A stretch of DNA of 64,000 bases, from assembly GCF_041886205.1 (NCBI RefSeq), contig NZ_CP169029.1, one strand, 5' to 3'. The position numbers and the translations under genes are program-made. Position 1 is the first letter of the stretch, and every line of letters starts with the position of its first letter. This document shows positions 45,879 through 49,388 of this stretch, in pieces. Origin of the DNA: Escherichia coli. GTDB lineage: Bacteria; Pseudomonadota; Gammaproteobacteria; Enterobacterales; Enterobacteriaceae. The notes beneath the pieces are model-generated. The model was given only the letters and a program-made list of their open reading frames with translations. It did no database searches and was not told the DNA's origin.

Positions 45879-45888
45879 TTATTCATTT

Positions 45889-45916
45889 GCCGGAGTGGGC
45901 GAACCCCCACTCCGGC
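45889..45916. terminator. Strong GC hairpin between convergent artJ and the sulfatase gene (possible bidirectional terminator)
   Basis: gccggagtggg-cgaacc-cccactccggc is a perfect 11-bp stem. The flanking runs are ttt (5') and aaaa (3') on the plus strand, so neither direction has a classic downstream U-tract. Confidence 0.45.
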
Positions 45917-45928
45917 AAAATCACCTCT

Positions 45929-47410
45929 CTACACTAACCCCAGGCGCTGAAACTGCTCTGGCGGCGCATCATTGTCTTTCATCAACTGAATCAGCAACGC
46001 GATCATCCGGGCCTCGATCGCATCATCATGAATCGGATGCAGCTGCTGCGGATCGTTTTGCAGATCAAACAGCAAATGACCAAACTGATTCAGCCCCTTA
46101 TATTTCTCCTGTGCCGGGATGCGTAGCACCTTTAACCCTTTGGTGAAACGAAACGGTGGAGCCAGCGATAAAGCCCGCATCTCATCCACCGGATAGCGGC
46201 TGTTCATTTTGCAAGCCATTAAGGTGTAGTTAGCAATATCATCCTCACGCCCCGGCAGCGCGGCACGCATATACACATAACGCCCATCGGTTACGTTGAC
46301 ATGACCACTGAAGACACCAAATATAACCGCACTGCGTACCGGTTCATCGTGGCTGACCGTTTTCGCCAGCGGTTGCCCCTGCACATCGGGCGGCACCGGC
46401 TGCTGAAAAAAGTCATACAACGTAGGTGCCCAGTCGATCATCTGCACCAGCGCCTGACGCCGTTCGCCTTTTACACCGCTGCGCGGATCCCATATAAACA
46501 GCGGGTTATTCGCCACTTCGTTGTAATAAGGCATCTGGTTTTTCGCCCACCAGCCATGCTCACCAAGTAAAAAACCGTGGTCGGTGCCAACAATCAGCAT
46601 GGTGTCTCGCCACAGATCGTGCTCATCCATCAGGTCGAGAATGCGCCCCAGGTTACGATCGCACATCGATACCAGCGAGCGATATCGGCAGCGGATATGC
46701 TCCACGGCCTCGTCGCTTTCCTGAACCCTGCCACGTGGCCAGTCATAATACGGCCCGCTCCAGTCATCCTCATATAACGAAAGGTACTCTTCCGTTGTGT
46801 AAAACGGCTCGTGCGGATCAAACGTTTCGACCTGCAATAACCAGTTATCTTGCGCGTGGTTTTTGTGGATAAATGCACAACCCGCGTCAAAGACTTTGGT
46901 TTGGGGAAAATCCGCTTCCTGCTGAATATATTCCCGGTTGGCCCAGTCATGACGCCACAGGCCAGAAACACCGCCGCCGGTCTGCTTTTGCGGCTCCCGT
47001 AGCACCTCGGGAATAGGCGGTTGCGCAACGCTCGCCTGCCAGTGATCGCCTTCCTGGCCGCGCACAATCTCCCATGAACTGTAGCGATTATGGTAATTTC
47101 CGCCACCATCTTCCCAGTAATGCAAATGATCGCTTATCAGGTGGGTATAGATCCCCGCCTTTGTAAGCAGCTCCGGCATGGAGTCGTCAAACGGTTCTAA
47201 CGGCCCCCACTCCCGGTGCAGAAAATTGCATCGCCCGGTATGCAGCTCCCGTCGGGCGGGCATGCAGGGCATACTCCCGACGTAGCTGTTTTCAAAGGTG
47301 GCGGCATGTGCCGCCAGGCGTTGGAAGTTCTCTGCTTTTGTCAATAAGTCGCCATACGGGGGTAAATATCTTTTGTTCAGGCTATCGAACAGGAGAATAA
47401 TGGCTTTCAT
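45929..47410 (-). CDS. Cytoplasmic (leaderless) Cys-type sulfatase-family hydrolase
   Basis: 493 aa with no signal peptide. The C-x-P-x-R formylglycine motif CMPAR is at residues 49-53 (nt 47252-47266). The downstream signature is LIVGTDHGFLLGEHGWWAKNQ. It lies 12 bp after the EIIB stop, so it is the last gene of an operon. Confidence 0.85.
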   Translation of the reverse strand: MKAIILLFDSLNKRYLPPYGDLLTKAENFQRLAAHAATFENSYVGSMPCMPARRELHTGRCNFLHREWGPLEPFDDSMPELLTKAGIYTHLISDHLHYWEDGGGNYHNRYSSWEIVRGQEGDHWQASVAQPPIPEVLREPQKQTGGGVSGLWRHDWANREYIQQEADFPQTKVFDAGCAFIHKNHAQDNWLLQVETFDPHEPFYTTEEYLSLYEDDWSGPYYDWPRGRVQESDEAVEHIRCRYRSLVSMCDRNLGRILDLMDEHDLWRDTMLIVGTDHGFLLGEHGWWAKNQMPYYNEVANNPLFIWDPRSGVKGERRQALVQMIDWAPTLYDFFQQPVPPDVQGQPLAKTVSHDEPVRSAVIFGVFSGHVNVTDGRYVYMRAALPGREDDIANYTLMACKMNSRYPVDEMRALSLAPPFRFTKGLKVLRIPAQEKYKGLNQFGHLLFDLQNDPQQLHPIHDDAIEARMIALLIQLMKDNDAPPEQFQRLGLV

Positions 47411-47422
47411 TGCTCATCCCTT

Positions 47423-47743
47423 TTATTTGTTTATCAGATAAGGGAAATGCTGTTGGACGACTTCATAAATCTGTGCACCAATCGTTTCACCATCCATAAT
47501 ATTTTCAATCGGGATCAGATATTGCCCGTGTTTCGGGTCCAGACTGACTACGTCGAGTAATTTTTTGGAAATAGCAAAAATATCTGCCCAGTCGGTAAAT
47601 CCTCCCACCTCACCTGCGGCAGTATGTTCCATTTCAACTTTGAACTCATATTTCGTCAGTGCTTTTTTAACGACCGTTTGTAACATCACGCTACTACCGA
47701 CACCATAACCACAGACAAACAGAATATTAATTGTATCTTTCAT
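47423..47743 (-). CDS. PTS EIIB component, ascorbate/lactose-type (PTS_IIB fold)
   Basis: 106 aa. MKDTINILFVCGYGVGSSVML contains the phospho-Cys loop CGxGxGSS seen in UlaB/SgaB-like IIB proteins. Confidence 0.85.
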   Translation of the reverse strand: MKDTINILFVCGYGVGSSVMLQTVVKKALTKYEFKVEMEHTAAGEVGGFTDWADIFAISKKLLDVVSLDPKHGQYLIPIENIMDGETIGAQIYEVVQQHFPYLINK

Positions 47744-47764
47744 TTTTACATCCTTAATAGTGAA

Positions 47765-49108
47765 TTATCCCGCGTAAGGACCAAGGTGGAATGTTGCAGC
47801 GATAAATTTCAGAACTTCACAAATAGCAGGCCATACAGTTGCCCAGTCAAATATTCCTGTCCAGCCGACGCCATTTTCAGCAAGCCCGGTTAACGGAATA
47901 GCCCACACCGTACCGAAGGTCTGAATAATACCCAGCAAGAAGGTACAGATAATTACGGAGCGGTATCCGCCCATGCGGTTTGCTAAAACGCCAATCGGGC
48001 CGCCTGAGAAAAATAACGGTACAAAGCCTGGCAATACCATAATGGGGCTGTGGATCAGTAATAAGATACCCATCGAGAAAATGGTGCCAAAAGTACAGAA
48101 GACAAAACCTAACGTTGCGGCTTTGGGTGAAAAAGGCAACAGCGCGGCGACATCGACGGCGGGAATGGCATTAGGAATAAAGCGATCCTGCCAGCCTTTA
48201 AAAGAACCGTTAATTTCACCGACCATCATGCGCACGCCCTGCAACAGAATGACCATGTACATGGAGAACTGTAAGCCCAGGTTGATAATATAGATGTACC
48301 AGGGTTTACCTTTTGCCATCATCTGAACGTTATCGATGCCCGTGGAGAGCAGGAACCCGCCAACAAACAGCGTCATCACAATGGCGATAGCCGTCACGTT
48401 GTGGTTAAAAATCGCCAGCCAGCCGGGGAGTTTCAGGTTTTCAGCATCGTGCTTTTCCGGGTCGCCAAATTTATGCGCGAATTTGGAGAAAAACCACAAA
48501 CCCAACATCTGGTTATGGGCAATGGTAAAACCGGCATCTTTGGTCACTTTGGCAATGGGTTTAGCAATGAGCGTGGTGGAAAAAGCCCAGAATATACCCG
48601 TTAATACCCCGGCGATAATAATCGATGTAGTCCAGCTAAATCCTAACCAAAAAACGATTAACCATAATACTGCCTGAGAATGTGACACACCGGTATTACC
48701 GGTCAGGAATATTCCTTTGGCACCGGTATAGCGACCAAACAGCACCAGTAAGAGGTTGGTAAAAAACGCCAGAACAAATACATAACCTACGTAACCAAAA
48801 TTATCCCCCAACGCAATTTGCGTTGCGGCTTTCATGGCGTAGGAATCCATTAAATAACCGTGAACGCCATAGGCTTTACTTACCGCTTCTGCCACCGGTT
48901 TAAAGGTTGCGGAAAACTGAAAACCACCAAATAGCACCATCATTAATCCCACCATGGCACTGACCATACCGGTGATTATTTTGATGGGCGATTTTTTATC
49001 GAGGGCATAACCAATGCCCACCAGCAAACCAATTAATATTGCGGGTTCGGTTAAAAACGTTTGAATAACATCTATGAATTTGGCAAACATCGTCGGAACG
49101 CCCTCCAT
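47765..49108 (-). CDS. PTS EIIC component, L-ascorbate (UlaA/SgaT) family permease
   Basis: 447-aa polytopic membrane protein with UlaA-like sequence character. The start is ambiguous: the ATG at 49108 lacks a Shine-Dalgarno, while the ATG at 49090 lies ~11 nt after GGAGGG. Confidence 0.8.
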   Translation of the reverse strand: MEGVPTMFAKFIDVIQTFLTEPAILIGLLVGIGYALDKKSPIKIITGMVSAMVGLMMVLFGGFQFSATFKPVAEAVSKAYGVHGYLMDSYAMKAATQIALGDNFGYVGYVFVLAFFTNLLLVLFGRYTGAKGIFLTGNTGVSHSQAVLWLIVFWLGFSWTTSIIIAGVLTGIFWAFSTTLIAKPIAKVTKDAGFTIAHNQMLGLWFFSKFAHKFGDPEKHDAENLKLPGWLAIFNHNVTAIAIVMTLFVGGFLLSTGIDNVQMMAKGKPWYIYIINLGLQFSMYMVILLQGVRMMVGEINGSFKGWQDRFIPNAIPAVDVAALLPFSPKAATLGFVFCTFGTIFSMGILLLIHSPIMVLPGFVPLFFSGGPIGVLANRMGGYRSVIICTFLLGIIQTFGTVWAIPLTGLAENGVGWTGIFDWATVWPAICEVLKFIAATFHLGPYAG

Positions 49109-49263
49109 AAGCGTACATTTCCGTTGTCAATGCATGAACCTTCTGCTGACGTTAATAATGCTTCAGGTATTTTTTATTTTTCGCTAAGCGATGCCTCTGC
49201 TAGTATTCGGTAAACGCACTGTAGTAATCAAAACAGTTCATTTAAAGATCTTATTTGATTATT

Positions 49264-49279
49264 TGTGATTTGATTTGCA
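49264..49279. promoter_or_regulatory. Weak CRP-like site upstream of the PTS-sulfatase operon
   Basis: TGTGAtttgatTTGCA compared with TGTGA-N6-TCACA has a perfect left half and 3/5 in the right half. It lies ~160-175 bp upstream of the EIIC start. Confidence 0.3.
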
Positions 49280-49294
49280 AAAATAGCGCAATAT

Positions 49295-49340
49295 ATAACC
49301 GTGATCGATCGGTTAATATTAATCGATCGATCACGGTTAT
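49295..49340. promoter_or_regulatory. 46-bp palindrome (17-bp perfect arms, 12-nt AT spacer): candidate operator or rlmC 3' hairpin
   Basis: ataaccgtgatcgatcg-gttaatattaat-cgatcgatcacggttat. It lies between the rlmC stop (49389) and the EIIC start (49108). Confidence 0.6.
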
Positions 49341-49388
49341 TATTTGGAATGGATGTATGCCGAAGTGATATTGATTTGAGTGATGTAT

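Follow-up and report, generated by a model that had tools for sequence, protein, structure and literature searches.

We analysed a stretch of 64,000 nucleotides from Escherichia coli (contig NZ_CP169029.1; below, the window) and focused on a three-gene operon located between artJ and rlmC, which encodes the EIIC and EIIB components of a phosphotransferase system (PTS) together with a sulfatase. We lean towards the view that this operon is an add-on to the Ula system for L-ascorbate-2-sulfate, which would be phosphorylated at C6 during uptake, desulfated in the cytoplasm and then passed into the Ula pathway. This proposal is based on the conserved coupling of the three genes in distantly related bacteria, the similarity of the PTS components to those of the Ula system, and the presence of ula genes next to the same cassette in four other species.

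Gene content of the artJ-rlmC region

The open reading frame (ORF) list of the window contains the following genes at this site:

45929-47410, minus strand, sulfatase gene (493 amino acids)
47423-47743, minus strand, gene for an EIIB of the UlaB type (106 amino acids)
47765-49108, minus strand, gene for an EIIC of the SgaT/UlaA family (447 amino acids as listed)

The gaps inside the operon measure 12 bp (sulfatase/EIIB) and 21 bp (EIIB/EIIC), and the 3.5 kb that hold it lie between the ends of artJ (45878, plus strand) and rlmC (49389, minus strand). The corresponding spacer of E. coli K-12 BW2952 is 198 bp long and presumably consists of repetitive extragenic palindromic (REP)-type repeats. 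Comparison with K-12 revealed that homology ends at the artJ stop codon (45878) and returns at 49396, approximately 7 bp inside the rlmC 3' end. Neither the ORF list nor the annotation contains a gene for an EIIA, a regulator, a maturase or a catabolic enzyme within the 3.5 kb, and a maturase was also not found in the near flanks of the island. Since the EIIA partner is missing in the island, the operon does not provide a complete PTS enzyme II set. A preliminary description of this DNA had named three minus-strand genes with these gaps, their families, the lack of all four of these functions in cis, and a K-12 spacer of about 200 bp without the genes; it agrees with the ORF list, the BW2952 comparison and the Pfam and NCBIfam matches reported below.

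The three genes carry public annotation, but without an assigned function. The window is 100% identical to the genome of E. coli strain wlxctx60, from bear faeces in Japan, in which these genes have equivalent annotations. A literature search by topic and with the Salmonella tags STM0883-0886, as well as with the O157 tags Z1087-1089 and ECs0941-0943, which were guessed and are possibly wrong, did not identify a paper characterising the operon; STM0884-0886 turn up only incidentally, in omics tables. The search also found no paper describing a PTS-coupled sulfatase route in E. coli, in line with the preliminary description, whose author knew of none.

Conservation of the EIIC-EIIB-sulfatase cassette

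We reached 80 species loci via homologues of the sulfatase. The genes of its closest relatives (at least 61% identity) are directly preceded by those for EIIC and EIIB, except in two Clostridium contexts (L014 and L016). The order EIIC-EIIB-sulfatase was observed in 21 contexts, and the trio occurs in Enterobacteriaceae, Lachnospiraceae and other Clostridia, Bacillus, Streptococcus, Erysipelotrichaceae and Brachyspira. A search started from EIIC again led to the trio in four of four contexts (Streptococcus pacificus, Brachyspira suanatina, Erysipelotrichaceae and another Clostridia contig). The complete clostridial cassette reads (anSME)-DeoR-EIIC-EIIB-sulfatase-EIIA, where anSME denotes the anaerobic sulfatase-maturating enzyme. 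The EIIA domain (PF00359) is encoded in the cassette or, in two metagenomic proteins (P0044 and P0086), forms a C-terminal fusion with the sulfatase. Among known families it matches the ascorbate EIIA best, and it shares 40-44% identity with UlaC; a pattern search detected the phospho-His motif GLAL[AS]H[AS]R in three of five cassette EIIAs.

Because the gene order is conserved across phyla, EIIA is fused to the sulfatase in some proteins and the EIIC-started search found the trio each time, transporter and sulfatase are predicted to act as one functional unit. The coupling of a PTS to a sulfatase, as first proposed from the window, is thereby strengthened. The analysis of orthologous contexts also located EIIA, a DeoR regulator and a maturase in the cassettes of other species, and the enterobacterial version appears to be stripped of these three components. 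More distant relatives of the sulfatase are instead accompanied by ATP-binding cassette (ABC) transporters of the CUT1/Opp type or major facilitator superfamily (MFS) transporters and by LacI/AraC regulators.

Some of these loci contain additional genes. Two short ChrA-like genes (PF02417) follow the cassette EIIA in L092 (11964-13105) and L104 (12614-13755); this pair may export the released sulfate. In a gut metagenome contig (L100, 219-7154), the cassette adjoins genes for a second, different sulfatase and a Man-type PTS (EIIAB, EIIC and EIID), which are accompanied by those for a GntR regulator, an anaerobic maturase and a TauE exporter. PTS-sulfatase pairings thus seem to be recurrent in Firmicutes. 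Downstream of a Lachnospiraceae cassette (L098, 11738-17161), a second EIIC/EIIB pair of the UlaA type is encoded, together with a SorC-type regulator, an arylsulfotransferase (PF05935) and an EIIA. URO-D-like genes are located near the sulfatase in five loci (L014, 5107-7184; L016, 5109-7186; L040; L073; L089), including a Hodarchaeota contig, and the L014 copy gives weak MtaA/CmuA-type matches.

Linkage to ula genes in other species

The only catabolic genes found beside the close clade are ula genes, in four species. In Bacillus sp. SD088 (L097), the genes for DeoR, EIIA, UlaG, UlaD, UlaE and UlaF are divergent from those for EIIC, EIIB and the sulfatase. The four Ula enzymes each exceed the cut-off of the respective model (UlaG, 643.7 bits versus 306; UlaD-type decarboxylase, 329 versus 250; UlaE, 431 versus 200; UlaF, 354 versus 257). 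No second permease was found in this ula cluster, so that the trio provides the sole permease there. The cassette of Longicatena (L018) and a neighbouring ulaG-EIIA-ulaA-EIIB operon are arranged back to back. In Clostridium sp. chh4-2 and MCC353 (L014 and L016), the sulfatase gene is the last of a same-strand string that also encodes UlaG (540 bits), two epimerases (one of the UlaF type) and a split transketolase. A possible further hint is a sulfatase gene reported to be inserted in the ula regulon of Sebaldella termitidis (PMC3219644).

No physical linkage of the operon to ula genes exists in the window. In K-12 BW2952, the ula regulon is complete, providing a pathway for L-ascorbate-6-phosphate, and is located at 4.355-4.361 Mb, far from artJ at approximately 0.80 Mb. 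Its repressor UlaR responds to L-ascorbate-6-phosphate (PMC5934670).

The EIIC and EIIB components

EIIC matches the EIIC-GAT family (PF03611; 5e-97, 326 bits) and the NCBIfam equivalog NF009550 (958.7 bits versus a cut-off of 583), which the EIIC proteins of Clostridium porci (627.6 bits) and Bacillus (735.9 bits) pass as well. This model (PRK12997.1-1) is described as 'PTS sugar transporter subunit IIC', with the function unassigned (NCBIfam). The protein shares 38% identity with K-12 UlaA and stays below the UlaA model NF006919 (318 bits versus 380). It retains G58, G286 and R288 of UlaA, which are the V-motif glycines and the Arg facing EIIB. Eleven residues of UlaA contact ascorbate, including S59 as a ligand of the ascorbate O3 (PMC6048161). 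Four of these eleven (Y87, H194, D314 and F362) are kept in EIIC. We therefore rejected the assignment of EIIC as a UlaA orthologue, given the sub-cut-off score and the four of eleven identical contact residues.

The replaced contacts follow a consistent pattern. H135, I136 and Q139 of UlaA are replaced in EIIC, and all 17 sulfatase-linked EIIC proteins share the exchanges S59 to G and Q195 to N. The same 17 proteins carry the signature LTGN[AST]G[TVI][AS]H in transmembrane segment 4a (TM4a), where H135-I-M-F-Q-Q of UlaA gives way to N-[AT]-G-[TV]-[AS]-H; this change amounts to smaller side chains plus one new His. True UlaA proteins retain the original residues, including ulaA of Longicatena and the second EIIC of L098. 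Towards the enediol side of the pocket, smaller side chains and an additional His would fit an added anionic group.

We also reconsidered the start of EIIC. In Yokenella, an in-frame TAA follows the first ATG of the gene. The invariant ATGGAGGG resembles a ribosome-binding site for the ATG of Met7, with GGAGGG just upstream of that ATG, and the Bacillus orthologue begins at model position 7. The true start is therefore probably Met7 at 49090, resulting in a protein of 441 amino acids, and the annotated start would be six codons early.

EIIB belongs to the PTS_IIB family (PF02302; 1.5e-10, 42 bits versus a cut-off of 23.6) and falls below the UlaB equivalog (43 versus 138). Its Cys11 is part of the motif FVCGYGVGSS (VCG.G.GSS), which is conserved across all cassette EIIB proteins and aligns with VCGNGQGSS of UlaB. 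By this alignment, Cys11 is the predicted phosphoryl-accepting Cys.

The sulfatase

The third protein matches the sulfatase family PF00884 (6.8e-27, 95 bits versus a cut-off of 25; Pfam) and the SGSH_C domain (PF16347; 47 bits versus 29), and scores 106 bits against the NCBIfam arylsulfatase model (cut-off 481). It contains the formylglycine motif C49-M-P-A-R53-R-E-L-H-T-G. In an alignment of 84 homologues, 110 positions are at least 97% conserved, among them C49, P51 and R53 of this motif as well as D9, H200, D277, H278 and K290. H95 and H97 are also conserved, and the second N-terminal acidic position holds Ser or Thr. When aligned with exported Bacteroides sulfatases, residue 4 falls opposite their residues 29-33, and position 9 already holds the metal-binding Asp. 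Because a leader peptide is missing, as had been noted before, the enzyme is predicted to be cytoplasmic.

Homologues with 53-59% identity occur in Actinomycetota, Chloroflexota, Planctomycetota, Paenibacillaceae and Asgard archaea. A gene for the formylglycine-generating enzyme (FGE) adjoins homologues in 15 loci and anSME in at least eight. These maturase neighbours support a true formylglycine enzyme, and the protein is best described as a Cys-type formylglycine enzyme of an uncharacterised S1 subfamily with predicted sulfatase activity. On two Asgard contigs (L061 and L073; Thorarchaeota and Hodarchaeota), a gene for an anaerobic maturase adjoins a sulfatase gene whose product shows 54-55% identity. 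According to a report by Benjdia and colleagues from 2007, neither AslB nor YdeM is needed for the maturation of Cys-type sulfatases in E. coli. If so, the lack of a maturase in cis need not be a problem.

A close solved or characterised sulfatase was not found, the best sequence match in the PDB being partial (E 2e-21). The AlphaFold model has a predicted local distance difference test (pLDDT) score of 76 and a predicted template modelling (pTM) score of 0.84, with values below 50 in the active-site loops. Foldseek returned S1 sulfatases for all of its best matches (probability 1.00, template modelling score of approximately 0.6, 15-19% identity). Because these nearest structures are generic and only 15-19% identical, the modelled fold says nothing on the substrate. 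The sulfatases of the PTS-linked clade are set apart from other homologues by an inserted loop (139-147) and by R226, H123, K436 and S368. These clade-specific residues may serve a phosphorylated substrate.

Proposed route for L-ascorbate-2-sulfate

An ascorbate derivative is our candidate substrate because the components resemble UlaA, UlaB and UlaC, ula genes belong to the gene context, and the pocket is partly kept. All PTS parts are closest to these three proteins. L-Ascorbate-2-sulfate is a metabolite in mammalian plasma and urine. From genome context, we infer a route in which EIIC, as a UlaA paralogue with a widened pocket, would bind the sulfate ester. An EIIA acting in trans, with UlaC as the obvious candidate, would charge Cys11 of EIIB, and the substrate would be phosphorylated at C6 on uptake. 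The cytoplasmic formylglycine sulfatase would then strip the sulfate to yield L-ascorbate-6-phosphate, which UlaG, UlaD, UlaE and UlaF would convert to D-xylulose-5-phosphate. The preliminary description had offered L-ascorbate-2-sulfate feeding into the Ula pathway as a speculative candidate. The ula linkage in four other species independently makes this candidate more likely, and a sulfated hexose is the less probable alternative.

Several observations weigh against this proposal. Linkage to ula genes within approximately 10 kb is restricted to four of about 23 close-clade species contexts (L097, L018, L014 and L016), and the cassette stands without nearby ula genes in the other approximately 19. 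Ascorbate fermentation is not expected in the Actinomycetota, Chloroflexota, Planctomycetota and Asgard archaea that harbour distant homologues of the sulfatase, there paired with ABC or MFS transporters. UlaC as the EIIA donor is an assumption, with neither an EIIA nor a regulator encoded in cis. The island promoter and the ula control region are not significantly similar, and a 10-mer found in both (GTTTTGATTA) is shared no better than by chance. On the side of the enzyme, an equivalent of Lys113, a sulfate ligand of the Pseudomonas arylsulfatase, was not found in the alignment, and the low-confidence active-site loops rule out a reading of the pocket from the sulfatase model.

Distribution, history and selection

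A presence/absence survey detected the operon in 566 of 5426 complete E. coli genomes, in single copy, on the chromosome and always at the artJ-rlmC site. Carriers include O157:H7, O55:H7 and O145:H28, and protein matches added Shigella dysenteriae and S. boydii. Salmonella enterica, Pseudocitrobacter and Yokenella harbour the same trio at the rlmC-artJ site, with all three genes intact in the four genera. Nearly all Salmonella carry the operon, which corresponds to STM0884-0886 in strain LT2. In comparison with Salmonella, the island genes show 77-82% nucleotide identity and the neighbouring genes 78-87%. The GC content of the island ranges from 0.40 to 0.56, that of the flanks is approximately 0.52. 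We found no flanking repeats, insertion sequence (IS) elements, integrases or mobility genes around the operon. A mobile or horizontally acquired island was also considered and rejected, given the single site, the lack of mobility genes and repeats, and the four genera that share the site.

Because the same site is occupied in Salmonella, Pseudocitrobacter and Yokenella, the divergence resembles that of the neighbouring genes, and repeats, IS elements and integrases are missing, the operon appears to be ancestral in this part of the Enterobacteriaceae and to have been lost from most E. coli, including K-12. The initial suspicion of ancestral DNA lost from K-12 is thereby borne out.

We compared the window allele with the O157-type allele and determined the ratio of nonsynonymous to synonymous divergence (dN/dS), which is 0.013 for EIIC, 0.030 for EIIB and 0.054 for the sulfatase. 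These low values place all three genes under strong purifying selection. The synonymous divergence (dS) of the island genes is 0.43-0.82, compared to 0.06-0.09 for rlmC, ybjO, potH, artQ and artM, and the island alleles within E. coli are, by this measure, apparently old. Raised values outside of the island were obtained for artJ (45147-45878; 0.35), artI (42799-43530; 0.19) and potI (51105-51950; 0.26). The old haplotype thus seems to reach into artJ and not into rlmC, in a mosaic of divergence. Some carriers encode truncated sulfatases of 323-378 amino acids (P0031, P0036 and P0119, standing for many sequences), and one E. coli carrier, H70 (NZ_CP083585.1), has an IS1 insertion within the island.

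Putative control elements

The following elements were located on both sides of the operon:

49205-49285, minus strand, conserved upstream block of 81 nt, near-invariant in four genera, predicted promoter/operator
49295-49340, no strand, palindrome of 23+23 nt, arms 96% complementary, terminator-like in the scan
45886-45919, no strand, GC-rich hairpin (perfectly paired arms of 14 nt, loop of 6 nt) in the 50 nt that separate artJ from the convergent sulfatase gene

The upstream block contains long invariant runs in Escherichia, Salmonella, Pseudocitrobacter and Yokenella, embedded in a variable spacer. It is 95-100% identical in all 566 carriers, compared to coding DNA that goes down to 91%. 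The block probably represents the promoter and operator of the operon. It holds a CRP-like TGTGAtttgatTTGCA (half-site pair) and an AATCAAA/TTTGATT inverted repeat, both of which would be candidate regulatory sites. A sigma-70 scan of the 280-bp upstream spacer gave no strong promoter, and the matches were not above those of shuffled sequences. No second copy of the block was found in E. coli genomes by blastn, which would miss a short operator. We also considered an operator shared with the ula regulon. The 10-mer GTTTTGATTA is common to the island promoter and the K-12 ulaG-ulaA spacer, but 42% of Markov shuffles gave an equal result, and this candidate was rejected.

The 46-nt palindrome is located approximately 50 nt past the rlmC stop codon and is present in O157-type strains, Salmonella and Pseudocitrobacter and absent in Yokenella. 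It probably terminates rlmC transcription and insulates the operon. The hairpin at 45886-45919 is not followed by a T-run on either strand; it may nevertheless act as a terminator between the two convergent genes.

Alternative explanations

The main rival retains PTS uptake followed by desulfation and assumes as substrate a sulfated hexose, hexuronate or N-acetylhexosamine from mucin, glycosaminoglycan, plant or algal material. Most cassettes lack any catabolic gene, which agrees with such a substrate, as the desulfated product would be an ordinary sugar phosphate in no need of dedicated enzymes. The pairing of distant relatives with CUT1/Opp-type ABC or MFS transporters and LacI/AraC sugar regulators points in the same direction, as do the nearest solved structures, which are carbohydrate sulfatases, at just 15-19% identity, and the further, uncharacterised PTS-sulfatase pairs of the Man type (L100) and the pneumococcal Lac type (PMC3302838). 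However, the sole catabolic neighbours of the clade are the ula genes of four species, the PTS parts are nearest to UlaA, UlaB and UlaC, and the ula enzymes of Bacillus sp. SD088 are encoded without another permease. We therefore consider a sulfated common sugar possible but rather unlikely, and prefer L-ascorbate-2-sulfate. A different use of the ester is assumed in sulfur scavenging, where import would mainly provide sulfate for cysteine and the carbon skeleton would be incidental. The AtsA system of Pseudomonas serves as the model for this explanation, which draws on the bare layout of a transporter plus a cytoplasmic sulfatase and on the occurrence of the wider sulfatase family in soil bacteria. 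We regard it as very improbable in view of the sugar-type regulators (DeoR, LacI and AraC), a PTS importer that spends phosphoenolpyruvate on a carbohydrate, and the ula linkage. Possible anion exporters after some cassettes (ChrA-like in L092 and L104, TauE in L100) also argue against it, since they suggest that the sulfate is discarded.

The third enzyme could instead be a formylglycine-dependent hydrolase of the phosphonate-monoester, phosphodiester or phosphatase type that acts on the PTS product. Weak sub-threshold matches to PehA and the Phosphodiest family were obtained, phosphonate monoester hydrolases are among the structural neighbours, and promiscuity is well known in this superfamily. 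But the full sulfatase signature is present together with conserved residues of the predicted sulfate site, the family is annotated throughout as sulfatase and linked to sulfatase maturases, and possible sulfate/sulfite exporters are located near some loci, so that we give this explanation very little credence. An inactive remnant in E. coli and Salmonella appears equally far-fetched: the dN/dS values stay at 0.013-0.054 despite a dS of 0.43-0.82 between the E. coli alleles, the three genes are intact across four genera, and the upstream block is conserved. It is true that the EIIA, regulator and maturase of the Firmicutes are missing here, that the operon is gone from about 90% of E. coli, and that truncated sulfatases or an IS1 insertion occur in some lineages. 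The missing maturase carries less weight if E. coli, as reported, matures Cys-type sulfatases without AslB or YdeM.

Comparison with known systems

The E. coli ula system (UlaA/B/C, UlaG/D/E/F and UlaR) shares with the operon the EIIC family PF03611 and the Cys motif of EIIB. The EIIA of relatives is nearest to UlaC, their regulators belong to the DeoR family, and the cassette is joined to UlaG/D/E/F in some species. In contrast to the ula system, the EIIC of the operon has a rebuilt TM4a pocket with S59 and Q195 changed, a sulfatase is always attached, and the E. coli operon contains no EIIA, regulator or catabolic gene in cis. AtsA of Pseudomonas aeruginosa is a cytoplasmic Cys-type arylsulfatase that works with an ABC importer. 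Both systems combine ester uptake with a leaderless formylglycine sulfatase and lack further pathway genes, but the importer of the operon is a phosphorylating PTS, the regulators are of the sugar type and the sequences are only remotely similar. The N-acetylglucosamine (GlcNAc)-6-sulfate cluster of Bifidobacterium breve consists of a transporter, the intracellular sulfatase AtsA2 and the maturase AtsB2. It resembles our cassette in the import of a sulfated carbohydrate, intracellular desulfation and, as in Firmicute cassettes, a nearby anaerobic maturase. Its transporter, however, is not a PTS, and its 6-sulfate would block the usual site of PTS phosphorylation. The uncharacterised pneumococcal region SPH1922-1929 combines a Lac-type PTS with genes for a sulfatase, a maturase and a TauE-type exporter (PMC3302838). 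This region and the likewise uncharacterised Man-type set of L100, which also includes maturase and exporter genes, share with the operon the placement of a PTS permease by a sulfatase, but belong to other PTS families and other sulfatase subfamilies.

If the proposed route is correct, it would give a function to an orphan operon of O157:H7, O55:H7, O145:H28, Shigella, nearly all Salmonella and many gut Firmicutes, and would extend the Ula system to a host-made conjugate. It would be the first PTS route with a product that needs desulfation and would provide the first substrate for this sulfatase subfamily. This would also be the first biochemical handle on a subfamily in which identity does not fall below 53% between Enterobacteria and members from Actinomycetota or Asgard archaea. 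With the operon present in about 10% of complete genomes, E. coli lineages would then differ in the nutrients that they can use. On the broader idea of an unrecognised, widespread pathway by which gut bacteria, including O157:H7 and Salmonella, feed on host-excreted vitamin C sulfate, we see the arguments as evenly balanced. Ascorbate-2-sulfate is a known compound, which makes the prediction specific and cheaply testable.

Another variable gene in the window

A gene for a 589-amino-acid pentapeptide-repeat protein is located between ybjP and ybjQ (38902-40671). This stretch is covered to at least 80% in just 1122 of the 5426 complete E. coli genomes, and ybjP and ybjQ are adjacent in Salmonella. 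The pentapeptide-repeat gene is therefore another variable gene of the window.

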